Part shown: one piece after another, positions 13,575 to 49,060 of the stretch
How positions within the stretch are numbered: position 1 is the first letter of the stretch
Layout of the letters: the number at the start of each line of letters is the position of its first letter
Assembly (NCBI GenBank): GCA_964187785.1
Contig: OZ076409.1
Coordinates: forward strand, 71,302,001-71,366,000
Reading direction: 5' to 3'
DNA from: Amphiscolops sp. MND2022
Taxonomy: Eukaryota
Length of the DNA stretch: 64,000 nt
Notes under the pieces: model-generated
Database searches by the model: none
What the model saw: only the letters and a program-made list of their open reading frames with translations
What the model was told of the DNA's origin: nothing
Made by a program: the position numbers and the translations under genes

Positions 13575-15767
13575 GTGGAGGTTATTTTATAATAATTAAT
13601 GTGTTTTTTTCCGGAGTTTGTGGCTTTGGAAAAAACAAAAGGCGAGAAATCGGGCACTCCGGGCTGAACCGTATACACTCAAATTTCGCCCATTTTTTAT
13701 ACGATCTCGAAACTCAGCCGTACGATTTGGCTGAAAATTTGCATGCGGCTACAAATTGAGATTCTAAGAACTATTTCCTGGTGACATTGTTTTGAAATTT
13801 TTGTGTACGTTTCCCCCCCGCCCCCTAAAGGGGCCAATTTTCCCCACTTTTGCACTTATGAGTCAAATTCTCAAAACTGGTGGATCTGAGCGTATTCCCG
13901 CCGGGGACAACTTTTAACAAGCGCTCCTCAGTAGACCTTCATGACTTTTTACTTTGGTGGTACGTTCACCCCCCGAGGAGGAAATTGCGTTTTTGTGACT
14001 TCCGGTCGAGGCTTTTTTCACCCAAAAATTAGATTTAAGCCAGTTTTGAGCAGGAAGGAGTGGATTTAAAGTGCCTGTACCCTGCTAAAAATTTGTTGGG
14101 CTTGTAGCGATATATCTCATACCAAGTCTGGTTTTCACCCCCAAACCCCCCTTGAGACCAAAATTCACCCAAAGTTTTTTACCTCTGTTTGTAGTTTTTT
14201 TACCGAATATCGTCATTTCCATGGGTAAGGAGTTGAATTAGGGGCTCCTAATAGGGTACCAATGTTCAAGTACACTTGCAGTGCAACTGATTGACCCTTT
14301 TTGGGCCTCTCCTGTGTTCGGCAAGGACCGGAAGCGGTGTAACCCCCCCTTTTTTGACGTTTGTTGACCTTGAGACTCGCGCTTAGATGACGTTTATGTC
14401 GCGCGAATCCTACAAACAAGTATTAGGATGACATGCTAGCCAACTAGAGAGCAGTAAGGGAAACAATATTATACCGGAAGTAACCCCCCGTGACCGGAAG
14501 TTGTCATTTTTGACCGCAAATGGTCCAAAACCTAGCGTAAAAGCAGTTTTTCATTGCTTTTAAAGTCAACTTCTTACATTTTTCAATCTGCGCGAGCTTT
14601 TCTTCAGGTTCGTTTTTGTTGCCAGTGCACAGCAACGAATATACAACTGTAAAATTTTCGCTATAAAATTGTCGGAGAGAGAAATAACGGATTATTTGGA
14701 CTTTTTTTCAAAAATATTAGTCTACATCTGTCATTTTTACCCAATGTTACTCAACAGTAGAACCACAGGTTTTATTCTCTGCCCAAAAATATGCCTAACA
14801 AATTCACCTGTCCCTTTGGTTGCAGTTTGAGCATTCTAGCTTTACCTGGTCACAAGTTAGGGGACTTGAAAAAGTTTCAAAAATTTTTCCGAAAAATTTT
14901 TCTAAACGTCATGTCTCCCAAAGTTAAGAAACTTCCGCACAACTAGGATTACAAGTGAATGCACGTGGTAAGACCTATAATTGGAGAGAAAAATTCAGTT
15001 TGGAACGTCTCTTTATCGTAACGTGACGTTAAGAGAAGTTGCTTTGAATGCGAGCTTGATGAGACGTCGAGAAGTAACAGTGTGTAAATGGAACCTATGT
15101 CTCGACAAATACTCATCGGAATACATGAGATGAACCCCAATTACCCTCAATTTCAGTTGCCTAGTACAACAACGTCTTCCAAGGACCCTTTAATCTTTTT
15201 GATAAGCGTTGAAGTCATCATTAGCTTGAGTTCGCAAGAAACAATTGAGTACATTCTCATCTCTCCCCATCGGGTGAGATGAGAATGTTTTTGCTAAAAG
15301 CCAGGTACTACGGCCCAATTTTGTTTTATTGCGACGCATTCTGTGCTTTAGCACATAGATACTTTCATTCCGTCTCACTTTTTGTATACACTCTGATTTG
15401 TTGTTATAAATTTCTCGTCATTACTTTACATAAACTAATTACCATAAAACTTTAACGTCAAAGCCACATTCATTTAGACGCCCACCATTCCGTAGGTATG
15501 CCGAGGTATGCCATTCAAAGATGTATGTCAAACACAAATGCGATAAAATTAGTGCTGAAAATCGGAAACAGTGACAAACAGTTTTGACTTTTTGATATTT
15601 GTTAGGTTTTCATATGGAACTTACACATCACTGACAATTCAAAACATTCCAGCTGACGCTCACATACAAACATCAACGCCCACCGTCTGTGGGCATGCCG
15701 AGGCATGCCCTTCGACGACGTATAGCAAATTCCTTTAATATCTACACCCAATTGCGGTAGCAGCTAG
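13575..15767 (+). mobile_element. Non-autonomous cassette 7 (type A)
   Basis: Junction-bounded; similar to cassette 2. Confidence 0.75.
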
Positions 15768-18142
15768 GTGGTCGGGGTGTGTTTCCCAGCCAATTTTGCC
15801 GCGCGGGGAGGGACCCGTTCAGCGGCCCAGGTAATTATTTTTTTACATTAAAAAAAACGATACCCCGGAAAGCGATTTCGAAACCCACCCGTAGGATCCC
15901 TCTGAATTTTTGCATACACCTCCGTATAACAGTTCTAAGAAAAAGTCAGCAAGGGCGTTTTCAGTTCTAAACGGGGAATGTTGACCAAAAAGCGCAATTT
16001 ATGTCCAAAAAAATGCAATTTTTCGACTTTTTTATTTTTGACGGCCTACAGCTCTTTTCCAGATGCCCGCCCAAGTCATAAACCGGAAAGAACTTTTGTT
16101 GGGCACTTCGTGGAGAATCTGTAGGGTGATTTTCGTTTCAATCCTATTTCCTGACGTTGACTTATGGTTGGGTGAAAAAACGCAACATTTGTTACAAAAA
16201 GTGCTTTTGGTACTCAAGGGCCCATAACTCGTGACATAATCAATTGAGCAAGTTCGTGTATAATTACGATTTTGTTGCCTATCTATAGGAGAACAAACAA
16301 GCAGATACAAAATTTTCTGTGGGAAATCGTCAAAAAAAGATATCACAGGTTTTATACTCAATAAAACAGTGTGTTTCGGTTATCGTGGAAAAAATGTAAA
16401 ATGGTGGCATTTTTCGGCTGTTCATGGTAGCGGGTATTTTATTGCAGTTATTAACTCACCTCTAGTAGTCATTTACTTGGATGATTTTCACTTTTGATAA
16501 ATTGCATGATAAACTTCATTTTTTGCGTCACCAATATTGACACCCACGATTACAGTCAAATTTTTCGCGTTCACGTTTTTCAATGGATATAACTTTTTTC
16601 CAGTGTGTTTTACGGTTCTCACACAGGAGTGCAAAATTGTTGCCCGTCTTAAATAGAAAGTATATGGTGAGTTTAGAGTAATTTGAAAGGTTTTTGAAAT
16701 GTCCAGAGATGCACAAATTTACAGTTTTTTTGCCCACAAAACACTATTTTACGAAACCCAACACTTTTTGCCAAAAAAGTCAAACTTCGTCCACACAACT
16801 TAGATTGCAAGTGGATGCATGCGAAGAGTACTTGAAATGATGAAAAAAATGAGCTATAAAACGCTCCTTTACGACAACTTGACGTGCACCGAGGATAATT
16901 TGAAAAATCACGAAAAAAAAGAACAACGGTTCCAAAACAATCAGTTTGTAGTTAATGGCCAATAACTCCATACACAACCCTCCGCGCAAGCTAGTGTCCA
17001 AGTACGTTTTTGTTACCCGTGAACAGTGCAACAAGTAAGTAAAGGTAAAACATTATGTTGAATTTCGTCAGTGGAAGAAATAACGTGATTTTATATCACA
17101 TTTGAGTGACAAATTTGAAAAATTAGTCTATTCCGGGCATTTTACCTAAACTTTTTCGACAGTACACATACAGGGGGTAAAATTGGCCAAATATCATGCC
17201 TAACAAAACTATTTGATCCATTGGCCGCAATTTGAGCGTTTCACCTTTCCCAAGTCATAAATTATGGGACTTCGAAAATTTTCAAAATTTCCATTTTTCA
17301 ACAAAATTTCAAATTCGGGCCCCCCAAAGGTAAGAAAGTTCCACACAACTAGGATTGCAAGTGGTTGCATGTGGAAAGTACTCGAACTGACGAGAAAAAT
17401 GGGCTTTAGAACGTCTCTCTATCGTAACCTGACGTTGACTTATGATGTTTTGAATGTGAGATTGCTACGGGGTCGAGAAGTGTAAGTGGAACATATGTCT
17501 CGTTGAAAACTCATCGGAATACATCCAATGAACCCCAATCACCCTCAATTGCAGTTTCCTAGTGCAACAACGTCTGTCAAGGACCTTTTTTGATAAGAGT
17601 CGAAATTATTATTAAATTCAGTTAGCAAGAAACACTTGAGTACATTCTCATCTCTCCCCATCGGGGGAGATGAGAATGTACTTGCAAATTGGCCTCATTT
17701 GTTTTCATGCGAGGCATTCTGTGCTTTGGCACACATAGATAACTTTGTTTTGTCTGTCTTTTTGCATATACTTTAAATTGTCATTAGAAATTTGCCGACT
17801 TTACTTTACGTAAAATTAACTTTCTACCCTGCACCTTTAACGTCAAAGCCACATAAATTTAGACTCCTATCGTCGAAAAACATACCGCGGCATCTTTTTC
17901 GATGACGTATGCCGAAACACAAATGTGAAAAAGTGATGAGATTCAGAAACAGTGACAAAAAATTTTTACTATTTGACATAAGGTAGGTTTTTATATGGAA
18001 CTTACACATCACTGATATTTAATAACAATACAGCTGACGAACACATACCAACATCACCGCCCACCGTCCGTAGGCATGCCGAGGCATGCCTTTCGACGAC
18101 GTATGCCTAATCCACTCCCCGACGCCCCCACTCCGGCCCTAG
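15768..18142 (+). mobile_element. Non-autonomous cassette 8 (type B)
   Basis: Junction-bounded. Confidence 0.75.
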
Positions 18143-20528
18143 GTGGTCGGGGTGTGTTTCCCAGCCGATTTTGCCGCGCGGGGAGGGACCCGTTCAGCGG
18201 CCCAGGTCATTATTTTTTTACATTAAAAAAAACGATACCCCGGAAAGCGATTTCGAAACCCACCCGTAGGATCCCTCTGAATTTTTGCATACACCTCCGT
18301 ATAACAGTTCTAAGAAAAAGTCAGCAAGGGCGTTTTCAGTTCTAAACGGGGAATGTTGACCAAAAAGCGCAATTTATGTCCAAAAAAATGCAATTTTTCG
18401 ACTTTTTTATTTTTGACGGCCTACAGCTCTTTTCCAGATGCCCGCCCAAGTCATAAACCGGAGTAAACTTTTGCTGGGCACTTTGTGAAGAATCTGTAGG
18501 GTGATTTTCGTTTCAATCGTATTTCCTGACGTTGACTTATGGTTGGGTGAAAAAACGCAACATTTGTTACAAAAAGTGCTTTTGGTACTCAAGGGCCCAT
18601 AACTCGTGACATAATCAATTGAGCAAGTTCGTGTATGATTACGATTTTGTTGCCTATCTATAGGAGAACAAACAAGCAGATACAAAATTTTCTGTGGGAA
18701 ATCGTCAAAAAAAGATATCACAGGTTTTATACTCAAAAAAACAGTGTTTTTCGGTTATCGTGGAAAAAATGTAAAATGGTGGCATTTTTCGGCTGTTTAA
18801 GGTAGCGGGTATTTTATTGCAGTTATTAACTCACCTCTAGTAGTCATTTACTTGGATGATTTTCAATTTTGATAAATTACATGATAAACTGCATTTTTTG
18901 CGTCACCAATATTGACACCCACGATTACAGTCACTTTTTTCGCGTTCACGTTTTTGAGTGGATATAACTTTTTTCCAGTGCGTTTTACGGTCTTCATCCA
19001 GGAGCACAAAATTGTTGGCCGTCTTAAGCAGAAAATATATGGTAAGTTTAGAGTCATTTGAAACGTTTTTGAAGTGTCCAGAGATGCACAAATTTACAAT
19101 ATTTTTGCCCACAAAACACTATTTTACGAGACCCAACACTTTTTGCCAAAAAAGTCAAATTTCGTCCACACAACTTAGATTGCAAGTGGATTCATGCGGA
19201 GAGTACTTGAAATGGTGAGAAAAATGAGCTATAGAACGCTCATTTACGACAACCTGACGTGGACTTATGATAATTTGAAAAATTACGAAAATAAAGAACA
19301 ACGGTTCCAAAACAATCAGTTTGTAGTAAATGGCCAATAACTCCATACACAACCCTCCGCGCAAGCTAGTGTCCAAGTACGTTTTTGTTACCCGTGAACA
19401 GTGCAACAAATAAGTAAAAGTAAAACTTTATGTAGAGAATCGTGGGAGAAAGAAATAACGGGATTTTATATCACATTTAAGAGACCAAAGTGAAAAATTA
19501 GTCTATTCCTGGCAATTTACCTAAACTTTTTCGACAATACACATACAGGAGGTAAAATTGGCCCAATATTAAGTCTAACAAAACTATTTGATCCATTGGC
19601 CGCATTTTGAGCGTTCCACCTTTCCCCAGTCATAAATTATGGGACTTCGAAAATTTTCAAAATTTCCATTTTTCAACAAAATTTCAACTTCAGGCGTCCC
19701 AAAGGTAAGAAAGTCCCACACAACTAGGATTGCAAGTGGATGCATGTGAAAAGTACTTGAATAGACGAGAAAAATGGGCTATAGAACGTCTCTCTATCGT
19801 AAGCTGACGTTGACTTATGATGTTTTGAATGTGAGTTTGCTAACGGGTGGAGAAGTCAAAGTGTAAAAGTGGAACATATGTCTCGTCGAAAACTCATCGG
19901 TATACATGCAATGAACCCCAATCACCTTCAATTGCAGTTGACTAGTGAAACAACGTCTGTCAAGGACATTTTTTGATAAGTGTCGATATCATTATTAAAT
20001 TCAGTTAGCAAGAAACTCTTGGGTACATTCTCATCTCTCCCCATCGGGGGAGATGAGAATGTACTTGCTAAAACGTTCTCCGTTGTTTTCATGCGAGACA
20101 TTATGGGCTCTGGCAAATAGATAGATAACTTTAATTCGTCTGACTTTCTGATAAACGTTGACTTGTCATTAAGTTTCCCGTCGTTACTTTACGCAACATA
20201 AACTCTCTACCATTCACCTTTAAATTCAAAGCCACATAGATTTAGAATGCAATGATCGAAAAACATACCGAGGCATGTTTTCGACGACATTTGCCGAAAT
20301 ACAAACGCGAAGAAAACACTGAGAGATTCAGAAACAGTGACAACCACTTCTGACTTTTTGACATATGGTATGTTTTTATATGGAACTTACACATCAATGA
20401 TATTTCGCAACATTCCAGCTGACGCCAACCTACCAACATCAACGCCCACTGTCCGTGGGCATGCCGAGGCATGCCCTTCGACGACGTATAGCAAATCCAC
20501 CCCTCCGACGCCCCCGCCGTCCCCCTAG
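18143..20528 (+). mobile_element. Non-autonomous cassette 9 (type B)
   Basis: Junction-bounded. Confidence 0.75.
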
Positions 20529-23700: not shown

Positions 23701-25501
23701 ATATCACGATGGACAAAATTTTAGGATTAGAAAAAACATTATACCTTCGGTACAAGCAGCTGAGACTCAATCTAAAAGCTCATTTCACCCAACAACGACT
23801 ATTTCTACTCGTTTTCATAATCAAAATGCTTAAACCTGCTGAAAAAATTTTGCATGCAAAAAAGCGTGAAAAATTACGATAACGTATTCTGGCGTACGAA
23901 AATAACTCAGACAGTTGCATAACATTCTCAACGACATTCTGCTTCACAGACTCTAACTTCTGCATATCACATTCTTTCAAATGTATGTTGAAAAACGTCG
24001 TGAAACTAATAGCTTTTTGTCTAAGATTTTGAGACATCGGCGGACTTGAAAACAAAAACACGTTCGTTTAGGAATCTGCTATCAAATCAATATATTAAGG
24101 TCTCTTTTGTTAAATAAATTTCGTTTAGACTCTTTCAAGCCTGTAACAATTCGAAATACCATGCCTTCCAATAGGCCAAATTCTGATCAAGAGTAATTCT
24201 ACAAAGAAAACTAAAAATTCATGGCCTTTGTTACTTCCATTGTTCGAAATACAATGGACAGAAACTGTAGGAAGGCGAGGTATCCATGGTTATCGGAAAC
24301 ACCTTCTTCTTCCAGGTTTCTTCTTCTTTATGATTTTTCAAAAATTAACCAATGCACATCGAAAAACATCGAAAATACATGGAAAACAAAAATACTCGAA
24401 AAACGTGGGCAATACGGAATAGCGACGACTGATTTCAAGCAGCAACTCATATGGAATCAAAAAATGACAGCTCATATCAGACGGTAATTCATTTATATCA
24501 AATAGTACGGGTGCAACGAACATCAAATACGGTCCAAGAGACGACAGAATTTCAGAAAAATGCCAGTAGGGAACCCGGGCCGATTAAACAACTGAACAAG
24601 ATGATATATCTTAGATGAAAACTTTGACACGGCCAATAATTGAACTTGTGACTTAACAAAACATAATCATAAAAAGATGGAGGCTGAAAAAATTGTTTGA
24701 AAACTGGTTCAATTATTCATTCAACATATTACGAGCTTCGATTGAGCCTAAGTTGAAAGGAAACGACTGAAACTAATTTTCAGAAAAAGAATTAAAAAGC
24801 GACATCATGTTTCACCTAATTGAGCCAAAATAGACATGTTTGCAAATGGACGCCAGTCTCGAACAAGAAGCTGCATCCCATCAGATTCCTACTACACTGC
24901 TTACCGCTTCAAAGTATCATAATTACCTGGGTTTGGAAATCCCTACTTTAATTGAGTATCATTTCACTTTTTTTGCGTTGTTCTACATACAATTGTCACT
25001 GGAAACCTTTTGATTAAGTTGTGATACTGAAATGAATAGCCGAGTTAATGATATAAGCCAATACTTCCGGCTACTACATTACAATTGCTAAAATGAATCA
25101 ACAATTAAATAATTTTCTCTAAACATTTACTCTAAAGATTTTTCTATTTCAAGAATTAGTGTATACAATATAAGTGAATTAAAATCTAACTACCTCAAAC
25201 GGTGAAAAAGTATTAGCTGTTTCGTAACGTTTCGTCGCAATCGAGTCTGTCTTCATAAAGAAGTAAAAAAGCAAGATGGGAACGTCTAAAATCGACGCTA
25301 TGTCTATTGCTTTAACCGGACTGTTCATTCATCATTTCATCCCACATTCATCCTGGAGGTATCCTTGGTAAAAAAAGAAAAAAAACATATTCACTAAAAC
25401 GTTATATCCAAACTTCGAAAATGTTACATCCGAACTTTGATGTAAAATGCATGGGAATTTTATTAGAAAAATCTAAAATGGAAACTAAGAGTGTTAGACG
25501 A

Positions 25502-25731
25502 TTTTTAATGGCATATTTGGACTCGTACAGACGGCGAGTCAGACCGAGCTCGAATGCACAGACTCCACTTGGTTCATCATGTGATGACTCTGGAGCCCCA
25601 ACTACATGAAATCACTACTGTATTGAAGCAGTTGGGGCTCCATAGTCATCACATGATGAACCAAGTGGAGTCTGTGCATTCGAGCTCGGCCTGACTCGCC
25701 TTCTATACGACTCCAAATATGCTATTAAAAA
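25502..25731. repeat. Long inverted repeat (foldback) 1, ~102 bp arms, ~26 nt loop
   Basis: Left arm 25502-25603 is the reverse complement of 25630-25731 with a few mismatches. Confidence 0.9.
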
Positions 25732-25806
25732 CTTGCTACGAGCATTGCATAAGAAGTTTGATATTCAACACAATAACTATTTAATCCTTTTAAAATATTT
25801 GCAATA

Positions 25807-25984
25807 CAGTAAACCCTCGATTATCCGCCACTCGATTATCCGCCACCTTTGGTCAACCGCCACAAATCTACGGGGACATTTTGCTATAACACCCGTGTTT
25901 AAGCTCCCTTGATTAACCGCCACTCTCACTTATCCGCCATAATTCGCGGTGGACCGATGATGGCGGATAATCGAGGATTTACTG
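25807..25984. mobile_element. 178-bp MITE, Tc1/mariner/pogo type
   Basis: 24-bp TIRs CAGTAAA(C/T)CCTCGATTATCCGCCA with one mismatch, TA on both sides (25805-25806, 25985-25986), internal ATTATCCGCCA-like subrepeats. Confidence 0.85.
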
Positions 25985-26098
25985 TATAATATATAATATA
26001 TATATGATATAATAAAGATGATATAATATATATGACGTAATATATATGATATAATATATATGATATGAACTATATAATATAAAAAATAATAATATAGA
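25985..26098. repeat. TA/ATA-rich microsatellite-like tract
   Basis: TATAATATATATGATA-type repeats next to the MITE. Confidence 0.7.
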
Positions 26099-29000
26099 TG
26101 AAGCTTTAAATACTCCCGTCCTTACGTTTTTGATCTTATTCCTACTAGATCGAATGACTTAGTTTAAATAATTTCAATCGATTTCGAGACTTAGAAAAAG
26201 AGTATTGGATATGTTTAACAACTGTTTTCGAAAGAGGACGAAAATTAATTCGATAAAAAAGCATTCTGTTTTTGTGTGAAATAATTAAACGGATTTTCAA
26301 ACTCGACTCGTTTTACTTTCCTTTTTCAACGGAAGTAGTGAACGACATTTTGCTTTGATGAAAAGCATGAAAACTCCCACTTTTGTTTTCCGGTTCAGTA
26401 TGGAAACTTTGAAAACTTATTCTGAAAACATTCATCGAATGCTACTTTTATCTGACGATTTACCTCATTCAAATGGTTCGATTAAAATTACCAACTGCTG
26501 ACAAAAAATATCTTTTGGACATAAAAAGGTAGACCCAAATTTATCGGCGCGGTCTATCTTTTTGGTCGGTGCTTTTCTTAGGAAAAGAGTCAAATATAAT
26601 AATTGCATCCGTCGATGTTTTCTGATACACCTGTCCAATATAGGTCTACAAAAGGTTTTCCAATGTTTGCAATGTTACTTTTGTTTGACAATTTACGTAA
26701 TATATTAAAGCTGTAAAAATTGCTAAGGACCTACTTGCGAGAAGACACAACAGAGAACGGATATAACGTATACCGGCTTTAACGTTTCTTGGAGATTTTC
26801 TCTTTGTACTTAGAAACAAAGTTGCTATTATTCTTAGTCAAAAGAGACCACATGTTTCTAAAATTATTCTAGCTTTGGAATTTTCACTTCAGATTTTGAG
26901 TTGATTTTACTGGAAAACATACAGATACTTCGCAAATTCTGATACGAAAATTAACGAATAATTCCCATACCCATTTTTCAGTTTTCACTTTTTTGAACTG
27001 ACGAACTACCAAAAGTGCTTTTATAAAAACCTACAGTTAAATAACAATTATAAATGGTTTTACTGAGCTCCATGCACTGTCATAAAAGCAATAGATGGTT
27101 GTAGAAAAGTTGATTTGATAAACCTGCACTCTTTTTTCGAAAACGTTGTCTCAATAACTTGTAGCTAATGTAGGTGGTTATTGGTGGCGCAAATCATTCG
27201 TTGCACTGCGGAAAAGCACCAATGACAATCAGTCATTTCTATTTCAATTATGTGACTCAGCACCTAAAATAAAACGTATTATTTGATGAATAGAAGACAA
27301 TAAAATGAAAAAAAAAATGTCTAGTTTGTTCTGATAAAACGAGTTTTGAAATTTTTTTGCACAAATTTTGCATGGTAACTTTCCAATCAAAACTTTTGTT
27401 TGATTTTGAGCCAAATGTTGATATCCGATAACAAGTTGAAAAAACACGAGTTACATTGAGGTTCAAGATTGGAAAGATAAGTTTCGTTTCCTTCAGGTTT
27501 CTCTCGAATGATCCGTATGCTCCGTGATAACTAAGTAGGATTCAATGTAACACTGGTGAAGAAACAATGATTTCAATGCTAAAATTTTACAAGAAGCTCA
27601 CAATATCTTACAAAATAATGTTTTTTTTTAGACTTCTCAAAAGGAATTACAAAGTATTGTGTGAACTGTCTGTCTTCAACCGTTTCTTCAAAGAGTTTAT
27701 CGTTGTTTGTTTTAAAAAATCAGTTGCTAGAGGATGTTAGCCAAGAAGGTATTGCACTTTTTCGACATGCAAATCATATATCACAGTCAATATACCCCAT
27801 AAAACTGAAGCTAGGATACTTTGTATCAAGGAATTTGGTACTCTTTCAACAGGTTTACAAAGATTTTGATCTTAAAAGGTCGAATCAAGTTGAGAACACA
27901 TCTTCAACAATCAGTAATGATTTCGATTTCAATTAGGTGTCTGTAATCAATATCACTCTCACTTTGGTATTTGCATTAATTCATTGCTCATTTGAGTAGG
28001 CGCTTCTTGTAACAAAAAATGACCGACACTCACAGTCAACCACCTAGAAAATATTTATTTTCAAAGGATTCCGCTTGCAAAACTTTGTTAGTACCTTCAT
28101 TAGTCTAAGAACACTCGGATGTTGAATTCTAACAGCTCTGAAGCATATATTAACGGGCGTTTCTCGTTGCGGTAAAAAGAAGAGATAATTTTCTGCTTCA
28201 TACAGAGTGCTGTATACTGTTAACAGTAGCATTTTTAAATAACGGAACTCCATTCAAAAAGCAGCTTACTTCAAACCCAAATTTTTCCGGAATTTTGATT
28301 ATGATCTATTCAAATCTAGAAAATCATTTATTTTGTGGTAAACTTCTTTTTTTATTCTGCAATTACCAACCTTTTCAGTATGGGTCCTCAGCAAATTCAG
28401 ATGAACATTTTTGTAAATTAAATAAATTCTAAGAAATTTTTGCAGCAGACAAATTTTTGTTTTCGTGGCAGGTTACGAGACGTTTGGTTTCAAACTTTTC
28501 CACTTCAGGCAATTGAGTTGCGATATTCTAAAACAATTTGTTGTATCGTGATGGAAGAAAGTAAAAGAAACGGTGGACCTGCGGGTAAAAAGGGCATGCG
28601 AACGAGACGGAAAGTTTTTCAGCAGGCCAGAGCGGAAATCTAAAAAGAAAAATTGACGCAACAGAATGGGAGCGTTGAAAAGAAGGAAAAAAGGTATGCG
28701 AGAAAACTAAGCGAAGCACCAGCGTTGAGAACAGAACAAATAGTTAACTCAAGCGCAGGGTGCAAAAAAGCGCCATCAAAATGTCTAAAACCTCGCTGAA
28801 TATAAACGGTTTTTTTTGACAGAATTTGAACGCGACGATTTTTCACTCTAAGCCATTAACTAAGCTTAGGGACATACTCAAATGACAACCATGTCGTTGG
28901 ATCAAAGTGGCTCGGTGGTCAACCATGTTGATACAAAGCAAGGATCGCGTCGATTTCGCAAACAAATGTAAGCCAGGTGCCATTTTGGAAACTGCTTCAA

Positions 29001-30337: not shown

Positions 30338-30901
30338 ATGTTGGTGAGACATGGCAACTTTTCATTCAAGTGCTTCTACAATGGGCACAGGAACAATATT
30401 CTCATTCTTGGAGATTCATTATTGAAGACATTATACATGGGCGAGGTTGACGTTTTGTGTTTCCCTGGAGCCAGAACTGACGACGTGTTAGAGTTTTTGA
30501 ACAATCGAGAAATCCGTAATATTGTCCGACGTTACGATAAAGTTGTGTTATTTTTTGGTGGAAATTCTGTGAACGATTTTCCAAAGCAAGGAGTTTTACG
30601 GCAAGCCGAAAGACCTAGTGAGGTGTTCCATAATTTCGTATTTATAATCCAGCAAATAAAAACTCTTCGCAATAGTGTCAAAATTGGAGTTCTGGGGTGC
30701 CCGAATCGCTTCAATGGAACTTGGGAAAAAATCAAAGAGTTAAACGAACTTCTTCAAATATTACCCTGCGAGTACCGGTTTATTGGGCTGGGTACAAAAA
30801 TGAGCTGTAAAGTTGTCATCGATAAAGATCAAGTTCATTTGACCCAATTAGGTATCACATGCCTAAAAGGCATCATCAAACATAAAATTGTCAAATGGTA
30901 A
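30338..30901 (+). CDS. SGNH/GDSL hydrolase (esterase-like) protein, 187 aa
   Basis: Block I ILILGDSL, block II FPGART, block III FFGGNS, block V DQVHL, in the expected order. Confidence 0.75.
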   Translation: MLVRHGNFSFKCFYNGHRNNILILGDSLLKTLYMGEVDVLCFPGARTDDVLEFLNNREIRNIVRRYDKVVLFFGGNSVNDFPKQGVLRQAERPSEVFHNFVFIIQQIKTLRNSVKIGVLGCPNRFNGTWEKIKELNELLQILPCEYRFIGLGTKMSCKVVIDKDQVHLTQLGITCLKGIIKHKIVKW

Positions 30902-31250
30902 ACAAAATTTTTTTCATCCTGTCAATTCTGTTGCAGAATACTTTGATCTTGTGCAATACATAAAGTGAACATTTCAATGCATTAATTGATGTCAAAACAG
31001 TTAAAAGCTTTGATTTGACCGCCTTGGCCACTTTCTTCGTTGCAAAATATTCATATGTTTTCCATTGTCGATAGTTGATTTTGCATACGTGATGGTTTTA
31101 TATTTGTTCCGTTTTTCGGTGACATTGAAGATCTATGTAGACGTTAGAAAACATTTATAGTTCGTTTCTTTCGGTATTTGGCGTTAAATGGACAAGTTTT
31201 ATAAAATGATTTCAGCTTTGATTATTCTTTCAGCATAATGTATATGTAGG

Positions 31251-34200
31251 TTGCGGAACCAGTTACAACTTTCATATAATGCTTATGTTACAATTTTCAG
31301 TGCTTATGTTGAGAAAGAGTTCACAATGCCAAAGCGTAGATTTAAAGAAAGTGATTGCGTGAAAAGTGCCAAAAGGCCATCTGCGAAATGCCTGACCTGC
31401 GGCAGATTCAAAACACAAGCAAATTGTCACAATTGCAACAGACCGAGTCACAGCGCCAATGATGACGATGACGTCTCTGAACTGTCACCTTTACCGCCCA
31501 TAAACGCTGATGAAAGACTTTATCCGGATGTGGATTACTGTTACAGTTGCACGAGACAGTCAACTGACAAATACCCCCTTGTTTTGAATTCGGTTAGCGG
31601 AAAGAATCTGATGCGAAGAAAATTTGGCCCCCAAACAACCAACCAAGAAGTACTTCTATGTTCTTTGTGCAGTAAGTATTTGAATTGTTTGTCCCCTGAG
31701 TACCAAAACAATGCTAAATTTGAACATGCATGGCCGGCTGTATTTTGGTTTCTTCTGTCTGACAAAACCATCCAAGTCAATTTTTGGCAATATATACCAA
31801 TTGAAATGCGCTGCAGTTGGTTACATAGCGCTTCCATTTGTAATTCAATTTTTCGTCAACGTATTGATCTGGTATCTCTGCCAATTTTTGTTGATGTTAC
31901 GTTTCGAAGTCGTGTTTTTAGCCAATTTAAAATTCAATGGTCATCTAGTGAAATGGTGCAAAATGTGAACAATGAATTCTTTCCATTTATAAAATGTCCT
32001 GTCGGTTGTGGGGAGTTCATAGACAACTTTGGTAAAATAGATTTTGTACATTATTTATCCAAATTAGTTCCTGATTTGAACTGTTTCCATGGTGACGCAA
32101 TTGCCTACCTTAGCGGTATGCGAGCCGATTATGAAATTCCTGATTTTATATTTCCTGATGACCCTTTTGCCCCTATTGTCAAACCCTCACTTTTGGTGTC
32201 GGATGATGGAATTTTTCTGTTGACATGCAAGGATCATGATAAAAAAATCAAAGAGCAATATTGTCACCTACCAAAACACCCTTGTGGACGAATTTTCAAT
32301 CCTCTACCGGACCGCTTTGCACCAGCCACTTTGAGTGTCAGATCAGTGAAGCCTTTCAGGGAAAATTTTTCGTCAGCTTCCTACAAAATGGTCCAGTTAA
32401 ATAGCTCTTTTTGCGGTTCCAACACCTGTTTCATTTCACACGGAAAGTCTTTAGATAAAGTTACTGATTGCAGCATGAATCACGAAAGTTTTTATCTGCA
32501 CTGTAGACAAGATACTCAATGTGTTGTTAGAAAACTTGTAGATAAAGGATTTTTGTCACAAGAAACTGCGGAGATTATTCTGAAAAATCAAAATGATCAT
32601 TGGCTTAGGGAGATGCGTGATTTGAAAGAGCATACTAATTTTGTTCCACTCGAAACAGTGGCCTTTATGAGACAAATTAATGAGAGACGTTTCTTTGATC
32701 CCATGACGACAATTATGGAAGACGAGGTGCACGCTGTTGATGCACTATCCGCTGATAATGAACTTATAACCACTGAAAATGGAAGTGAGAACGTTTCTTT
32801 TTCTAATACAGGATCGGACGAAAGTGGTCAAGTTAAACCCCGTGAAACAAGCGGAGCGGCATCGTTCATTGAAAAATTGTTGTTTCCTTGCGCGAAAGTG
32901 TTGGAACGAAATTTAGGTGCACCGCCTACCAGTTATCTCTGTCGATCAGAAAATAGTAAAATTTTGATTGACATGACTGGCAACTCAGTACTTTTTTATA
33001 GCAATTTAATTGAAGCAACTTTGAGAAAAAGTAGATATGGTTGGAAAATTTTATCATGTTTCACTAAGAAAAAAGGTTTGTCTGCCAGTTCATGTTTCAA
33101 GAAGGCTTTGAGGATTTTAGAAGATGATACAGGACACCAAAGTGTTGCGGACATTTTCTCGCAGTTGTCTTTTGTTTCTCTCGTAAATGTTCCCAACAGA
33201 CAAATGCCTATCCAATTCGATACTATCGTTTGCGAAAAAGATTTTGTTGTTGTTGTTAGCTCTTGTTCGAGGCAAAGATCTCTTTTGCCACTTGAAAAAA
33301 CGGCAAAGATCAACAATGTTTTTTTCAAGTTGGTCTATGTTGTTGCACGTAATCGTGACTGTTTTTTCCGTTATAAATTTTGCGATAAATGGTGGAATAT
33401 AACTAAAGCTAACAGACCACAACCAACTGTTCATGATAACATCAACAAATTGTTGGATAAGAACTCTTGGACTATTGCTATTTATGAAAAACTGGAGACT
33501 TCTTTGTCACAAAAAGAATCGAGTCAGGCCACAAATAGTATTTATGGTCAAGATAAGGTTTACTGTAAAAATCATGAACTTCCGTTGACTTGTGATTTTC
33601 CAAAAAATGGTTTCGTTTGTCAATTTGATTGTGAATGTATGCTGAAGTCAGCTTGGAGATGTCCATCTGAGGGTTGTGAAAGTGCTCTATGCAAAAAGCA
33701 TTTTAATACCATTTTGGAGAAGAGTTGGGTGTTACCGCATGAAGGGAAAAACACCCTCAACCAACACCTTGTTGAAGACTTTACTGGTGAAAGCGTTGTC
33801 AATGTGGAGTCCTGCCGTGAAGACATGGAATGTGATCCTTTAACACTTATTGAAATGCCTACTGAGGCTGGATTTGTAGATGACGTGGAGGCTTCGAACA
33901 CTGATACAGGGGCAACTGCAGTTGAGTACCACAGGAACGATGACTTGCAAAGTATTGGTAGTCATATTATAATCAACGGAGTTTGTTCTTTGCTCAATAG
34001 GCCAAAACACCCTTGTCACTTCCGTAAAAAAGATTGGCGGTTTTTGCAATCTTTCGTAGCCAATTGTCCAGACGAATCTGTTCCTTTGACGTTTCCTGAA
34101 GCTGCGTTGTTGCCATCCATATATTATGTAATGCTCAAAAACACGATCGGTGGCGCAATTCCTTCCCCACTTTACAGCCCCGCTATGGCGAAACGTTTCA

Positions 34201-34256
34201 ATTTTGCAAATATTGTTTCACATATTAGATCTCGGTTGAAAACATCAGTCTTCTAA
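31251..34256 (+). CDS. N-terminal half of Helitron-like Rep-helicase (Cys-rich, putative Zn-binding region); joined to 34277-38452 by a 1-nt frameshift
   Basis: 1001-aa ORF (likely start MPKRR at 31326); collinear with the N-terminal half of 55902-62810 (RKFG, AWP, CPxGCxxF, LTCxxH, WxCP..C...CKxH, PLxxPEAxLxPSI). Confidence 0.8.
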   Translation: MRNQLQLSYNAYVTIFSAYVEKEFTMPKRRFKESDCVKSAKRPSAKCLTCGRFKTQANCHNCNRPSHSANDDDDVSELSPLPPINADERLYPDVDYCYSCTRQSTDKYPLVLNSVSGKNLMRRKFGPQTTNQEVLLCSLCSKYLNCLSPEYQNNAKFEHAWPAVFWFLLSDKTIQVNFWQYIPIEMRCSWLHSASICNSIFRQRIDLVSLPIFVDVTFRSRVFSQFKIQWSSSEMVQNVNNEFFPFIKCPVGCGEFIDNFGKIDFVHYLSKLVPDLNCFHGDAIAYLSGMRADYEIPDFIFPDDPFAPIVKPSLLVSDDGIFLLTCKDHDKKIKEQYCHLPKHPCGRIFNPLPDRFAPATLSVRSVKPFRENFSSASYKMVQLNSSFCGSNTCFISHGKSLDKVTDCSMNHESFYLHCRQDTQCVVRKLVDKGFLSQETAEIILKNQNDHWLREMRDLKEHTNFVPLETVAFMRQINERRFFDPMTTIMEDEVHAVDALSADNELITTENGSENVSFSNTGSDESGQVKPRETSGAASFIEKLLFPCAKVLERNLGAPPTSYLCRSENSKILIDMTGNSVLFYSNLIEATLRKSRYGWKILSCFTKKKGLSASSCFKKALRILEDDTGHQSVADIFSQLSFVSLVNVPNRQMPIQFDTIVCEKDFVVVVSSCSRQRSLLPLEKTAKINNVFFKLVYVVARNRDCFFRYKFCDKWWNITKANRPQPTVHDNINKLLDKNSWTIAIYEKLETSLSQKESSQATNSIYGQDKVYCKNHELPLTCDFPKNGFVCQFDCECMLKSAWRCPSEGCESALCKKHFNTILEKSWVLPHEGKNTLNQHLVEDFTGESVVNVESCREDMECDPLTLIEMPTEAGFVDDVEASNTDTGATAVEYHRNDDLQSIGSHIIINGVCSLLNRPKHPCHFRKKDWRFLQSFVANCPDESVPLTFPEAALLPSIYYVMLKNTIGGAIPSPLYSPAMAKRFNFANIVSHIRSRLKTSVF

Positions 34257-34276
34257 CGTCTGGTGATCCGCGTCTT

Positions 34277-37200
34277 TTGCAATTTTATTTCGATTGTTAC
34301 TTCAATTTCCAATCGCTTCGCAGAGATTCGAGATTGGTGTTGAACCGAGGACTGCAAGAATTTACAAAATCAGATAGCGAATGCAATAACCATGCAAAAT
34401 TTAGAATGAATGAGGTAGATAGTCGAAAAATTGTGAATGAACTTGCAGCTGCCATACGATTAGAGGAACCTACATTTTTTCTTACTTTCACACTGAACAT
34501 GTCTCGAATGTTTGGAGTTGCGCCGCTCTTTCAACTCATTGAAAAAAATTGCAAGGGTTTGAGCACTGAACAACAACACATACTCAAGGAAAGTTTCATG
34601 CCACTTTACATGAGACTGTGGGAAAGGGCTGTAGTTTTTTTCATAGAATATCTTGAAAAGTCCACTGAAAAACCTTTGGGTACAGTGACTAACATTTTTC
34701 CGAGGTTTGAATTCCAAACATCCAAGGGAAATGCTCCCCATTTACATGTAATAGTTTGGACCGCTGAATCTAAAAATGACCCAGTTATTTTGAATAAAGT
34801 TTTAGGTTCATTCAGACAACTTCTTCATCAATTAAATGTAGAACTGTTTGACTCATCGAACAAAAACGTAATGTCTCAAGAAGATGTTGATGGTTTATTA
34901 ACTTTGGCAAAGTCCCTTCTCAGTCATAATTGTGAAAAGGCCTCTTATAGATGTCACAAAAAGTGTGACAATTCGGGTAAGATGGTTTGTCGCTTCCATA
35001 TTTTCGAACCTTGTTCTGAAACGTTTTTCAAGTCTGTTGAAAGACCACATACACCTGAGGTTTGGTCAATTTTACACCATCTCGGACTGGCCAGGCCACA
35101 TGACAAGGTGGACGGTGCATTTCACATAGATGAGGTTTTGCAAGGAGGTAAGTTTAACTATGCAGCTGATTACGGCGAAACGTTCTCACCAGTGAATGGT
35201 AAACTGTTTTCATTGCTCCAGTGCAGTATGAATTGCTTACTATGTGACAGAGTAATGTCTGCCAGTTACTTAGCAAAGTACGCTGCAGGAATTGAAGAAC
35301 ATGCTACGGTAAGTATATCCGGTAAGTCTGACACAACTGTTTCGATTTGTGTGAAAAGTTTGAAAAACTTAAAGATTGCTGGTGCTGAGTTAGCTGCGAA
35401 GTCTGAAAAAACAAAGGTTTCAACCAAAAACTGCAGAGTTCTGTCTACAACTGAATGTGTTTGGTCCATGTTAGATCTAAGATATGTTTTTCCAACATAT
35501 GAATGTGTTCATGTTAACACTCTCCCTTTAGAAAACAGGGGCGGTTTTCTTAAACGAAAAAGTCATGCTCCGGTCGCAGACACAGCAGCTGAGGAGGACC
35601 AAGCGTTACATTTTGCAAAGATGCGAATAAGTTTGCAATCAGACAGTCGACGTTATTTCACAATTAATCAAATACGAACTGTTAAGGAGTTTGTGAAGTC
35701 CGGGTTAACAATCGACAAAGTTTCTCTTTTTGCTATGCGTCCGCCAGAGTTACTTTTTGTCAACAACATAGAGTTTTATTACAGACATTTCACTTTCGTA
35801 AAGTTGGACAAAAAATCAACTACCTCGATGTATTCCAATTCATTGCATGATAGCTGTTGGATAGATGCTATCGGGAATATAGTTAAATTGCGCTCTCAAA
35901 GTATTCCTTCTTTCCAACAGTTTCTCTTTCAGTCGAAACAGAGTCCCTCCTCCAGTTATTCTTTTTTCTCGACTTTTTATGAAAATTCATTCTCTACAAC
36001 TTTCAATATCAATCATTTAGTGGACTTTTCAGCTGAAAAGCAAAAACCAGCTGTTGTTGTTTTCCCTAATGTTATACCAAAGCACGTGCCGAACTTTCTG
36101 ATCAGCTTCCTCTTGCAATTTGGACGGTATGAAACGGAATTTGATCTGTTTCAAACTGAAAACATTGCAACTGCGTACGCAAGAGCCGGTTTGATCAAAG
36201 ATGCTGCTTCAGTCAATGATATAGATATCAATGAGTTGCTCAAACTCTTTATACTTCAAAGGGTAATGTTTATACCAGGGTCACATGTATCTCAAGATAG
36301 ACAAATTGTTGACGCCAAAAATGCTTTTTGTTTTTTAAACGAAAGTCAGGAACTGATTGAAACGCCAACCATTGTGTACAATGCATTACAGCAAGAATGT
36401 TCTGAAGAACTGAATCGAAGTGTTACGAGTAAAATCACAAATGTCACCAAACAAATTCATAGTCTCATAACTGATAGTCAAAAACCAACAATTGACTCAC
36501 TAATTGATTGTCAGGCTGATTTTCCTCTGAACTACAACCCGCTACACTCCAATGCCCTTCATTTCAATGCTGAGCAAACCTTCGTACTGCAAAATTTGAT
36601 TCACATCATTGATTCTTTTGTCAATTCAGCGGCTTCGTTCTTCAAATATCAGTTCGTTGTTGGAATGCCTGGCTCTGGGAAAACGTTTGTTACAATACAT
36701 TCTTTGTTTTATGCACTTTGTAAGGGTCTCAATGTTATGGTTACATCGTTAAGCAGCGAAAGAGCCATGCAGTTCTCAGGCATGCACATTCACGATTTGT
36801 TTGGCTTACCAGTTTCTCAAAGTCTCATTGTAGATGAAATTGTGGAAAAAGCTCTACAGAAACTTGATTTTGATTTTGTGAAACTAACTCTTTTGAAGCG
36901 CTTAGACGTCCTTCACTTTGAAGAAATTGGTATGGTTTCGTCTGAAGAGTTTGCTTCAATTGATCTCATCTTGCAGAAAGTGAGAGAAAACTATCAGCCA
37001 TTCGGTGGCGTATTGGTCTTTGCTACGGGTGACCCCAAACAGTTGCCTCCTCCTCAGGGTCGTTTGATTTGGACATCCCCAATAGTCATAACCATAGTTC
37101 AGATGTATGCGTTAAAACAATGTGTTCGGATGGTTGAAAACGTCGGTCGTCAATTTTTAGAAATGTTGTCTAGCTCTGATATAGACGAAGCTGAATGCAA

Positions 37201-38452
37201 AATCATTTTAGATACGTTCGCGCAACAGTGTAGTTTTGTATCACATGATAAATGTCCAATTGATGCAGTAAGAATTTTCGGAACCAGAGCAGCTGAGCGC
37301 AAAGCAGTCGCTCAACAAATCAGTGGACTGCGGTCTTCGGGTATTTTTGTATCAGAAATCATGAGTTCCGATGAGGTGAAAATAAATTCCAGTAGTAATT
37401 GGAAAGAAATATCTAGTGTTCACGTTACGGTGTTGTCAAAATTGTGTTTGGAGCCCCGGATACTTTATTGCTACGAAAATGCCCTTTTCAGATTCACAAT
37501 GAATATGCCTTCTTTGCATGTTTCACAAGGACAATTGTGCGCTTTTTTAAACTTTTTGGGTTCTTTCACTATAGAATTTATGGCTGCACCACCAGGTGTT
37601 CGATGTTTACCACCAAAAGATACTTTCGGCAACTTTTTGTTTGAGGAAAACGGTTGGTTTAGGGTCATTGTTCATAAACAGGCAGGATTCGTACATAGTT
37701 GTCGAGGTTCATCTGTTCGTCGTGTGCAGTTTCCTCTCAAAAACTTCCTTGCAATGACCATTCATAAAGCTATGGGAGAAACAATTGGCAAGATCGTCAC
37801 CAAAATTGATTGTGTTGAACGAGAATATAACTTATGGGAAAAGGAACAACTTTATGTTTTGGCTAGTCGGGTGCAACGTCTAAGTGATTTGACCTTCATT
37901 GGTGAAAAGCAAAACACACTTGATGCAATAAAGTGTCTTCTCAACAAAAAAAATCAGTGGGATAAATACACAGAACAACTTGTGAATACAGCTTCTAATC
38001 AAACACCAGCTGTTTTTGATATTGCCAAATTTTCTCCATTTAGACCACAAAAAATGGAAATACCAAACGAAGCAGTAGGATTCGTCTACCTTTTAGTAAG
38101 CATAAAAGATGTGACATCTTTTTATGTAGGTGAAACTAGTGAATTACGTAGACGGCTCCTGGAGCATAACTCAGGACAAAGTTCTTTTTTCACCTTTCAA
38201 CCGCATCTTCGCCCTTGGGGTTTGCTAGCTTTCGCTACGGGTTTCAGCGACATTGCTGAAGAAAACAAAACCCAACGACAAACTTTAGAAAAAAAAATCC
38301 AGGATGAGATCTTTAAAAAATTTCATGCTTTCAACAGATCCGGATCACCAAATGAAGTGCTCGACGTTTTCCTTGAATGCATTCAACAGGCTAAGTATGA
38401 AAACAACTGTCTACGAGCTGTCATTACTGGATCAATTTTACACTCATGTTAA
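34277..38452 (+). CDS. HUH Rep + Pif1-family SF1B helicase + C-terminal GIY-YIG-like nuclease (Helitron-like transposase, C-terminal half)
   Basis: Rep motifs PTFFLTFTLN, EFQTSKGNAPHLH (HUH), YLAKY; helicase GMPGSGKT, FEEIGM, FGGVLVFATGDPKQLPP, RVQFPL..AMTIHK, QLYVLASR; GIY-YIG-like GFVYLL..FYVGET..RRRLLEHN..RPW. Confidence 0.9.
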   Translation: MQFYFDCYFNFQSLRRDSRLVLNRGLQEFTKSDSECNNHAKFRMNEVDSRKIVNELAAAIRLEEPTFFLTFTLNMSRMFGVAPLFQLIEKNCKGLSTEQQHILKESFMPLYMRLWERAVVFFIEYLEKSTEKPLGTVTNIFPRFEFQTSKGNAPHLHVIVWTAESKNDPVILNKVLGSFRQLLHQLNVELFDSSNKNVMSQEDVDGLLTLAKSLLSHNCEKASYRCHKKCDNSGKMVCRFHIFEPCSETFFKSVERPHTPEVWSILHHLGLARPHDKVDGAFHIDEVLQGGKFNYAADYGETFSPVNGKLFSLLQCSMNCLLCDRVMSASYLAKYAAGIEEHATVSISGKSDTTVSICVKSLKNLKIAGAELAAKSEKTKVSTKNCRVLSTTECVWSMLDLRYVFPTYECVHVNTLPLENRGGFLKRKSHAPVADTAAEEDQALHFAKMRISLQSDSRRYFTINQIRTVKEFVKSGLTIDKVSLFAMRPPELLFVNNIEFYYRHFTFVKLDKKSTTSMYSNSLHDSCWIDAIGNIVKLRSQSIPSFQQFLFQSKQSPSSSYSFFSTFYENSFSTTFNINHLVDFSAEKQKPAVVVFPNVIPKHVPNFLISFLLQFGRYETEFDLFQTENIATAYARAGLIKDAASVNDIDINELLKLFILQRVMFIPGSHVSQDRQIVDAKNAFCFLNESQELIETPTIVYNALQQECSEELNRSVTSKITNVTKQIHSLITDSQKPTIDSLIDCQADFPLNYNPLHSNALHFNAEQTFVLQNLIHIIDSFVNSAASFFKYQFVVGMPGSGKTFVTIHSLFYALCKGLNVMVTSLSSERAMQFSGMHIHDLFGLPVSQSLIVDEIVEKALQKLDFDFVKLTLLKRLDVLHFEEIGMVSSEEFASIDLILQKVRENYQPFGGVLVFATGDPKQLPPPQGRLIWTSPIVITIVQMYALKQCVRMVENVGRQFLEMLSSSDIDEAECKIILDTFAQQCSFVSHDKCPIDAVRIFGTRAAERKAVAQQISGLRSSGIFVSEIMSSDEVKINSSSNWKEISSVHVTVLSKLCLEPRILYCYENALFRFTMNMPSLHVSQGQLCAFLNFLGSFTIEFMAAPPGVRCLPPKDTFGNFLFEENGWFRVIVHKQAGFVHSCRGSSVRRVQFPLKNFLAMTIHKAMGETIGKIVTKIDCVEREYNLWEKEQLYVLASRVQRLSDLTFIGEKQNTLDAIKCLLNKKNQWDKYTEQLVNTASNQTPAVFDIAKFSPFRPQKMEIPNEAVGFVYLLVSIKDVTSFYVGETSELRRRLLEHNSGQSSFFTFQPHLRPWGLLAFATGFSDIAEENKTQRQTLEKKIQDEIFKKFHAFNRSGSPNEVLDVFLECIQQAKYENNCLRAVITGSILHSC

Positions 38453-39314: not shown

Positions 39315-40550
39315 ATGGTTGAAAGTTCCAATAAAAATCCCGAAAAACGTCAGTTTCTTAGCAAGTTGTTTGCAAGTACTTTTGTAGTTTATAAAACACT
39401 TGTTGACAGGTCGAGGTTTCACCACATTTGTTTCCTTTTTTCAGTTGTTGTTTTGTCACCGACATTCTTCATTGCAAACATGAATTCAGGTTTTGCTAGC
39501 TCACTGACCCCTGCGGCAGCTCACGTGTTGTCCTTAGAATATGAAGAAATTTCCTTTGTCAACTTCATTGCTGGCGATGATACAGAGGACAGAAAATTGT
39601 ATTTGGTTTATATTCATGGGAAACGATCCACAGAACCGATAAAATATAAAATGCCAAGTGGTTCGAAATCTAACATTGCTTACAAGCAAAGACTCTTACC
39701 ATTAACATATGACCGGTTTTTCCTATTTGGTGACCCCGCTTCCAACAGAGTCTTGGCTCTTTTCTCATCAAATGAGAAAGAGAGCAGAATATTGACCCGG
39801 TACCACAATTTGATAAAACCCGGTCAGGTTGTCGTCATTATTGAGCCCAGAATAACAGGTACCATGGTTGACTCACAAAATGTTCTAATAACTACAAGCA
39901 ATCCAATTCTCGCAGTCCCAGAAACTGAATGCACATTAACCTTCAATGAGATGCCGCCCTATGACATCGAAAGTGAAACTGACATAAAGTTTTTCCACTT
40001 CATAACAAAAGACCTCAGATTGAAGTTCGTCACGCCGACAACGGATTTATGCTCAGGCTCTTTTTGCGACGGTCAAGCGGCTAAAGAGACAATGTGTGCT
40101 TGCATCGAAAAAACAGGTGTGAAAGAGTGGGGAATAAGAGCTCTTGTGGAATGCACGGAGTTATCTCTGGAGCGAACTTCTCACCAAAAATCCTCGTTTC
40201 TTTCCGTAGCTTTCGCGAAATTGGCAACGGTTGGTCATAGAAACCTCCGCCCGCAGGACGGAATGGCTTTTAATTGGATGACTTTCAAACGAAATATCCG
40301 GGAGTTCATCGAGGCAATCAATAACCCGAATGGGGTACTTCCTGACGCCCAAATGACGCAATTACAGCGAGGATTCAAGGTAATTGGTTGGTTCAAGCCT
40401 TCCAAAATCGATTCAGAGAGCTTTGTGGAAGTTCACGAATTCCACATAATATCGATTACAACGGTCAGTAAGTCGGATGAATTACCTCAGCAAATATTGG
40501 CTTTGCGTTTCCCAAGGCCGCCTGTATGTGATTCTGACGAAAATGAATAG
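39315..40550 (+). CDS. Uncharacterised 411-aa cargo protein (possible OB-fold-like region plus Cys cluster)
   Basis: Long uninterrupted ORF in AT-rich DNA; CSGSFCDG...CAC cluster; start may be M56 (~39480). Confidence 0.65.
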   Translation: MVESSNKNPEKRQFLSKLFASTFVVYKTLVDRSRFHHICFLFSVVVLSPTFFIANMNSGFASSLTPAAAHVLSLEYEEISFVNFIAGDDTEDRKLYLVYIHGKRSTEPIKYKMPSGSKSNIAYKQRLLPLTYDRFFLFGDPASNRVLALFSSNEKESRILTRYHNLIKPGQVVVIIEPRITGTMVDSQNVLITTSNPILAVPETECTLTFNEMPPYDIESETDIKFFHFITKDLRLKFVTPTTDLCSGSFCDGQAAKETMCACIEKTGVKEWGIRALVECTELSLERTSHQKSSFLSVAFAKLATVGHRNLRPQDGMAFNWMTFKRNIREFIEAINNPNGVLPDAQMTQLQRGFKVIGWFKPSKIDSESFVEVHEFHIISITTVSKSDELPQQILALRFPRPPVCDSDENE

Positions 40551-48771: not shown

Positions 48772-49060
48772 GTTTCCCAGGTTATCGTTCAGAACAATTT
48801 GAACAAAAAATATACTGAGAACTTCGATTATATATACTTCATTTATTTCATCTCACATTCATCCACATTCAGTTCAAAGGTTATCGTTCAGAACAATTTG
48901 AACAAAAAACATACTGAGAACTTCGATTAAATATACTTCACTCATTTCATCCCACATTCATCCACATTCAGTTCCCAGGTTATCGTTCAGAACAAACTGA
49001 ACAAAAAATATACTAGGATCTTCGATTAAATATACTTCATTCATTTCATCCCAGCTTCAT
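48772..49060 (+). repeat. Three tandem ~99-bp repeats
   Basis: GTTATCGTTCAGAACAA at 48781, 48880, 48979. Confidence 0.9.

Follow-up and report, generated by a model that had tools for sequence, protein, structure and literature searches.

The window, by which we mean the whole 64,000-nucleotide stretch analysed, is a single head-to-tail array; its transposon content and few long open reading frames (ORFs) give it a eukaryotic look. No tRNA was found in it. The units of the array and the principal genes of its two long units, whose boundaries are putative, are listed here.

681-20528, plus strand: nine short non-coding units of 1.4-2.4 kb, with a 20-bp palindrome and then CTAG, without foldback
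20529-43551, plus strand: long unit A (23 kb), from one CTAG junction to the next
30338-30901, plus strand: GDSL/SGNH-hydrolase-like ORF of unit A (Pfam PF13472, E 4e-4, under the curated cut-off)
31239-38452, plus strand: RepHel-GIY-YIG gene of unit A, read in two frames that overlap, 31239-34256 and 34229-38452 (PIF1 E 4e-13, GIY-YIG E 2e-6, Rep motifs)
39315-40550, plus strand: ORF of unit A whose product is predicted to be an RPA-like protein with an OB fold that binds single-stranded DNA (Foldseek match to archaeal RPA at E 1e-5, resting on a pLDDT-57 model)
43552-46209, plus strand: two more short units without foldback
46210-64000, plus strand: long unit B, which continues beyond the window
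55707-62810, plus strand: RepHel ORF of unit B, running without interruption for 2367 codons between stops, 32% amino acid identity to unit A

Each of the 13 array junctions consists of the 20-bp palindrome followed by CTAGGTGG, a sequence whose 13 plus-strand occurrences all fall at array junctions. CTAG is present at all 13, located 40-55 nt past the palindrome, whose start is 62-73 nt upstream, and GTGG follows CTAG directly in every case. The variable 35 nt before CTAG correlate with the upstream sequence (rho 0.45) and not with the downstream sequence (rho -0.18), coefficients whose p-values assume independent pairs and are indicative only. Because this tail tracks what lies upstream, the unit boundary is placed at or near CTAG. 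The body type of a unit fails to predict the type of the tail that follows (rho 0.16 overall), so the units are mosaics. All 11 complete short units are non-coding, about 1.3-2.4 kb long, and form a mixed array of at least four unit types. In both stretches of short units, 681-20528 and 43552-46209, unit type switches at a CTAG junction. The palindromes, at 606, 2783, 4977 and ten more junctions, are accompanied in most units by a degenerate second copy about 200 bp upstream; they appear to resemble a p53-family binding site.

The starts of the long units resemble short units, at 91% over 1.8 kb for unit A and at 96% for unit B. The long RepHel units probably have the short ones as their non-autonomous partners. 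Units A and B have a 5' core in common (66-77%), and positions 41509-41732 of A match positions 52386-52688 of B at 58-64%, with a simple repeat after each. This last match hints that unit B may be a chimera of two elements. Most short units also contain a 44-nt hairpin (20022-20065 and equivalents). In an observation that covers this hairpin and positions 22352 and 47180, similarity to the short units ends within the hairpin loop in unit B and some 75 bp short of the hairpin in unit A; the region may be a preferred site of breakage or insertion.

Rep and helicase motifs are found in the RepHel proteins of both long units, with the HUH Rep motifs upstream of the PIF1 helicase (Helraiser match, E 3e-9). 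The C-terminal GIY-YIG region of the unit B protein went undetected by Pfam. Members of this RepHel family are 2,300-2,800 aa long and carry a fused SLX1-like GIY-YIG domain, for which the best solved relatives are SLX1 nucleases (E 2e-8), and a long, uncharacterised, cysteine-rich N-terminal part, for which an atlas search gave a weak UCH match only (0.76). The family comprises hundreds of clusters, with many subfamilies on long contigs. A search with the Rep region gave 34 matches among 1774 candidates, and 793 cluster representatives at E 0.001. Among 19 proteins scanned, three from the window and 16 of the 34 matches, GIY-YIG was found in 11, OTU in two, and DUF6570 or AP endonuclease in none (E 0.01). 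In a scan of metagenomes, 138 of the 178 stretches were confirmed, and the 75 loci that came back are all distant; no RepHel relatives were found in viral contigs. The ORF at 39315-40550 is Pfam-negative, its predicted structure has an RPA-like OB and zinc-finger fold, and its homologues adjoin RepHel in loci L001 and L014.

An HUH Rep and a PIF1 helicase in one ORF are likewise described, in the passages cited, for the Helitron-like groups HLE1 and HLE2 (Helitron, Helitron2, Helentron; PMC11417382, PMC4067079, PMC4778049). Other shared traits are the RPA-like gene, OTU in some relatives, CTAG ends, and short non-coding partners. The units under study differ in the great length of the ORF and in having a fused C-terminal GIY-YIG in place of the AP endonuclease. 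The parts of PMC11417382 and PMC4067079 that define the groups give a 5' TC start as the rule for HLE1, and short terminal inverted repeats (TIRs) with DUF6570 as marks of HLE2. Here the sequence after CTAG is GTGG rather than TC at all 13 junctions. The 3' CTRR of HLE1 is matched by CTAG, but the palindrome begins 62-73 nt upstream instead of about 11 nt from the end. Comparison with the 12-16-nt TIRs of HLE2 yielded scattered 12-14-nt matches, none at the putative ends, and the two HLE2 protein marks, DUF6570 and AP endonuclease, are the domains absent from all 19 proteins. Judged from its sequence, the carrier is Helitron-like by its RepHel and fails the HLE1 and HLE2 end rules examined. 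One Sphagnum HLE2 family with a captured GIY-YIG domain has already been published, in the part of PMC11417382 that deals with it. In the open-access literature we found neither a 100-bp internal Helitron foldback nor a fused RepHel-GIY-YIG family, although subscription papers, Repbase or supplements may describe them. Long and short members of this large family appear to be stacked head to tail at a common CTAG junction.

Each long unit contains one long foldback, here called F1 (unit A) and F2 (unit B), within a conserved non-coding block of about 1.2 kb. The features of the two blocks are these, no strand being assigned to the foldbacks or to the MITE.

25328-25501, plus strand: conserved unit A sequence upstream of F1, with the same base as unit B in 87% of aligned columns
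25396-25437, plus strand: motif of about 22 nt in that flank, iterated twice as a tandem repeat, conserved beside the stem
25502-25731: foldback F1, arms 25502-25610 and 25623-25731, each 109 nt, 92% complementary
25532-25576: mid-stem of F1, left arm, GC-rich (58%) and faster-diverging, 26 of 45 positions identical to F2, gapless
25807-25984: TA-flanked MITE of 178 bp with terminal inverted repeats of about 22 bp, in unit A only
26227-26548, plus strand: non-coding block downstream of F1, 77% to 49752-50065
49036-49174, plus strand: upstream flank in unit B, conserved, its 5' neighbour a 99-bp x 2.9 tandem repeat at 48779-49062
49175-49474: foldback F2, arms 49175-49305 and 49344-49474, each 131 nt, 94% complementary; by arm comparison its outer 30 bp or so are paired in F2 only
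49240-49284: mid-stem of F2, left arm, GC 71%, containing a 9-nt tandem repeat (period 10) that the right arm mirrors
49752-50065, plus strand: non-coding block downstream of F2, conserved counterpart of 26227-26548

F1 and F2 are the top two folding windows across the whole 64 kb. As RNA, F1 has a minimum free energy of -184.6 kcal/mol (z -23.0), equalled by none of 200 shuffles, and F2 one of -231 kcal/mol (z -26.1), equalled by none of 100; when 588 kb of locally shuffled sequence were scanned for hairpins, nothing passed the threshold. The earlier note had placed F1 exactly; its span for F2, 49189-49460, was slightly too narrow. It was right that each copy is complementary within itself and that the two sit in homologous context, since 25328-25738 aligns with 49036-49446 at 72% and 25987-26548 with 49507-50065 at 69%. 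The distance from unit start to foldback is 4.8 kb in A and 2.8 kb in B, an internal and not a terminal position, and none of the 11 complete short units has a foldback.

Identity of the foldback block between units A and B is 69-77%. The downstream blocks contain indels and are without codon bias. Non-coding blocks at about 70% beside proteins only 32% identical suggest, so far as two sequences allow, that the blocks are under constraint or that subfamilies have exchanged left arms. A coding origin of the foldback arms was considered and ruled out, since they show neither codon-position bias (p 0.18-0.70) nor any match to a protein. Searches for DNA homologues of the block came back empty: profile searches of 83 loci gave nothing below E 0.02, scans for the exact scaffold pattern had no match in metagenome contigs or in GTDB genomes, and three scaffold patterns had 0, 1 and 0 matches in viral contigs, the single match (L076) being unrelated sequence without a foldback. 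The two genomes behind L077 and L078 gave chance-level matches to the block only. The analysis therefore rests on two copies.

That the palindromes were created by misassembly or by chimeric reads is scarcely credible. Foldback chimeras are a known long-read artefact; here, however, there is a difference of 6-9% between arms, the loops show homology, and one register is common to both copies. Such structures would also arise if an ordinary family of foldback MITEs had inserted twice independently, and foldback MITEs are typically 230-300 bp, with long inverted arms and a short spacer. F1 and F2 fit that size and shape, and a real MITE has inserted 75 bp from F1. Against this, both flanks are homologous and in register, so that the copies occupy one homologous site, the arm ends are not fixed but vary between copies, and no target-site duplication (TSD) is visible, a TA or TTAA duplication being indistinguishable from the palindrome itself. 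The dispersed copies with TSDs expected of such a family were not seen either: the 64 kb hold two copies, both in homologous flanks, and no third. Independent insertion is accordingly very improbable, and what the earlier note had named as the case against its idea was not found.

F1 and F2 align without a gap over 269 columns at 71% identity, and the alignment is gap-free in three of four alignment settings, while the flanks have one gap per 40-70 columns. The chance of so few gaps is P 0.02-0.1 for one arm plus loop. Conservation along the stem is uneven. A common outer stem and a common inner stem, both reported in the earlier note, are borne out at 27 of 30 and 17 of 19 bases identical; the 8-nt loop motif it listed with them is present, with marginal significance (permutation p 0.04). 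The same note held that the intervening 45 bp or so had been replaced. This is not so: the middle aligns without gaps, with 26 of 45 positions identical against 26% expected from composition (p 9e-6), and the best of 30 shifted registers reaches 17 of 45. The middle is thus homologous and has diverged by substitution, and on this alignment the variable middle is an accumulation of substitutions rather than a swapped payload. It has nonetheless changed faster, with 19 differences in 45 positions versus 12 in 91 in neighbouring sequence (permutation p 0.006, which accounts for choosing the worst 45-nt window).

The arms have changed in concert. At the stem positions compared, they match at 94% and 91% within a copy and at 72% between copies. 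The 102 stem positions comprise 68 pairs without change, 20 that have changed on both sides and are still Watson-Crick, 10 with a change on one side, and four that have changed on both sides with pairing not present in both copies; these counts rest on two copies with no outgroup. In 20,000 simulations with independent arms, double changes averaged 1.2 and never exceeded seven. Counted on the predicted folds, 21-23 pairs are kept via double change and 3-4 via single change. Transversions account for 14 of the 20 double changes in the stem and 40 of 73 changes in the flanks. With a share so near that of the flanks, there is no excess of the transitions expected from G-U intermediates, and no sign of stepping through G-U pairs. 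The double changes cluster as adjacent runs. Immediately left of the stem 29 of 35 nt are identical between copies, and these outer 35 nt pair at 32 of 35 in F2 versus 15 of 35 in F1, so that either the F2 stem was extended in register or the outer arm of F1 was overwritten.

A tandem pair of hairpins at the window end provides an internal contrast. A 296-bp tandem repeat occupies 63409-64000, 600 bp downstream of the unit B RepHel, and each repeat unit folds into a bulged hairpin of about 190 nt (z -7.5 and -8.7). Here the plus strand folds better by 14-24 kcal and pairing is kept mostly via G-U-type changes. The pattern of change is the reverse of that in the foldbacks, two double against 8-9 single changes (Fisher p 4e-4 against F1/F2), in a comparison of pairs that differ in divergence (72% identity for F1/F2, 82% for the hairpins at 63.4-63.9 kb). 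The latter look more like RNA precursors than F1 and F2 do, and unrelated to them.

The pattern in F1 and F2 points to arms kept matched by arm-to-arm copying at the DNA level, the mechanism itself being read from sequence. Arm-to-arm conversion was among the origins proposed in the earlier note, and the covariation, the scarcity of one-sided changes and the in-register extension of the F2 arm speak for it. Known cases are similar. In the part of PMC8794818 that treats them, template-switch footprints include multiple compensatory changes and stem extension. The section of PMC1803023 on nematode intergenic inverted repeats describes structure more conserved than sequence, and proposes arm-to-arm conversion. 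F1 and F2 share with these concerted inverted repeats the precedence of structure over sequence, the multi-base compensation and the stem extension; they differ in being only 230-300 bp long, in lacking inverted paralogous gene flanks, and in residing inside a rolling-circle element. The foldback thus behaves like known concerted inverted repeats. It belongs to no Rfam family, the best lead being a sub-threshold miRNA match (E 0.12, 26 of 71 bits). We infer that copying at the DNA level accounts for the covariation and neither proves nor excludes a function; copying and function are not exclusive. For two copies such as these, heavy covariation can come from DNA copying and so is not by itself proof of a functional RNA.

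We tentatively prefer, with confidence just short of even, to regard the foldback as an accessory passenger of long Helitron-like elements whose arms are matched through copying. Both copies would go back to a single quasi-palindrome. It would have become fixed in the left-hand arm of such an element, presumably through template switching or through insertion of a foldback MITE long ago. Duplication of this left arm into units A and B would have followed, and the two diverged by about 28%. DNA-level templating, perhaps template switching or mismatch correction in a folded strand, would have either removed each substitution from the arm in which it arose or carried it over to the opposite arm; such templating would leave each copy self-complementary while F1 and F2 drift apart. 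A single-stranded stage of rolling-circle transposition might favour folding and correction, and the Helraiser model, as presented in the relevant part of PMC4778049, includes a single-stranded circle. Rep, helicase and the RPA-like protein are encoded near the foldbacks. The 11 short units without a foldback indicate that it is dispensable in cis for their spread; it would be dispensable for mobility generally, and would have no selected function. A mutation spectrum that looks neutral, the lack of targets in the window, the 273 proteins and the 75 loci, the want of an Rfam family and a strand bias short of significance also speak for a passenger. What sits poorly with a mere passenger is the contrast between the conserved stem ends and the middle (p 0.006), which suggests selection on some of the stem sequence. 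Few gaps, the conserved iterated 22-nt motif by the stem, and the survival of an unstable structure also argue for constraint. In the passages of PMC1803023 that discuss it, the persistence of long near-perfect inverted repeats is argued to imply selection.

If some function is selected, an RNA is one candidate. The foldback would then be a putative hairpin-RNA gene on the long elements, its transcript folding to a duplex of 110-130 bp that is diced to siRNAs. Conserved stem ends and flanks would fix the register of transcription or processing, the middle would be a freer or target-tracking payload, and the compensatory changes would still come from arm copying. Duplexes this long and this nearly perfect are typical substrates of Dicer, and hpRNA genes have just such long duplexes yielding endo-siRNAs, with paralogues whose stems diverge. 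The long intramolecular duplexes with their extreme z-scores fit well, as do the conserved scaffold with a faster, mostly gap-free middle, the 1.2 kb of conserved non-coding context, and the pair of RNA-like hairpins, unrelated to the foldbacks, that unit B also contains. In contrast to hpRNA genes, F1 and F2 have few G-U pairs and no clear strand preference: the minus strand is 9-11 kcal more stable and G-U-compatible (wobble-type) mismatches number 9 versus 3, a strand bias that is not significant. No Rfam family was matched at the gathering threshold. The earlier suggestion that the variable stem might have targets drew no support from searches of the 64-kb window, where stem matches were chance 15-mers with two mismatches only, of 75 related loci, or of 273 proteins. 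A hairpin-RNA gene is possible but doubtful. Less probable still is the broader proposal that giant RepHel/SLX1-like GIY-YIG transposons, little-described and widespread, carry their own putative long-hairpin RNA genes, in which the scaffold fixes the processing register and copying lets 45 bp change without loss of pairing. Such a re-programmable siRNA cassette could silence host genes or rival elements; a transcribed foldback would mean that a DNA transposon carries a fast-evolving siRNA cassette.

A DNA signal restricted to the long elements seems unlikely. It would be a putative second-strand origin on a single-stranded circle, of the kind that figures in the pertinent section of the published Helraiser model (PMC4778049), or a hairpin or cruciform that is bound or cut, with RepHel or its SLX1-like GIY-YIG acting on it and the middle tuned to each transposase subfamily. 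The similarity of the family's C-terminal domain to SLX1 structures fits this reading. SLX1 cuts branched DNA. An iterated 22-nt motif adjoins the stem, and the mid-stem of F2 has a tandem repeat (shuffle p 0.002); the corresponding F1 iteron, however, is not significant (p 0.12), and the unit B GIY-YIG escaped Pfam. A sequence-unrelated imperfect foldback of 245 nt (z -13), with internal sub-repeats, lies 0.5 kb upstream of the ORF in one distant relative, at 22-266 of locus L066, and may be an unrelated MITE. It is the only long foldback among the 75 relative loci. Among 28 loci measured and folded, the three (representing two elements) with at least 5 kb of upstream sequence have no comparable foldback, an absence that weighs little because short-read contigs may break at such repeats. 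A second-strand origin, as the earlier note had it, is weakened by the 11 short array units that lack the foldback. Its position, 2.8-4.8 kb inside the units and away from their ends, is likewise not that of a rolling-circle terminal or origin hairpin, and the hairpins known from Helitrons sit at the ends and measure about 19 bp, whereas those of F1 and F2 are 110-130 bp and internal. Homology of F1 or F2 to the L066 foldback or to the hairpins at 63.4-63.9 kb was unsupported, the best result being 2 of 200 shuffles in one of 20 comparisons.

Matched arms that change fast, in hairpin repeats close to an HUH enzyme, are also a trait of REPINs, which are bacterial and are mobilised by the HUH transposase RAYT. 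F1 and F2 differ in being eukaryotic and in lying near a Y2-type RepHel rather than RAYT, with neither dispersal nor mobility demonstrated.

Two further observations concern unit B. Two overlapping short frames at 51779-52346, with GDS and GxND motifs by eye, are possibly a broken SGNH-hydrolase gene; the region had no Pfam support and no tblastn match to the GDSL ORF of unit A. Farther on, a 114-bp x 2.6 tandem repeat is followed at 52875-53178 by degenerate TTAGGC/TTAGGT-type repeats, which resemble telomeric repeats.
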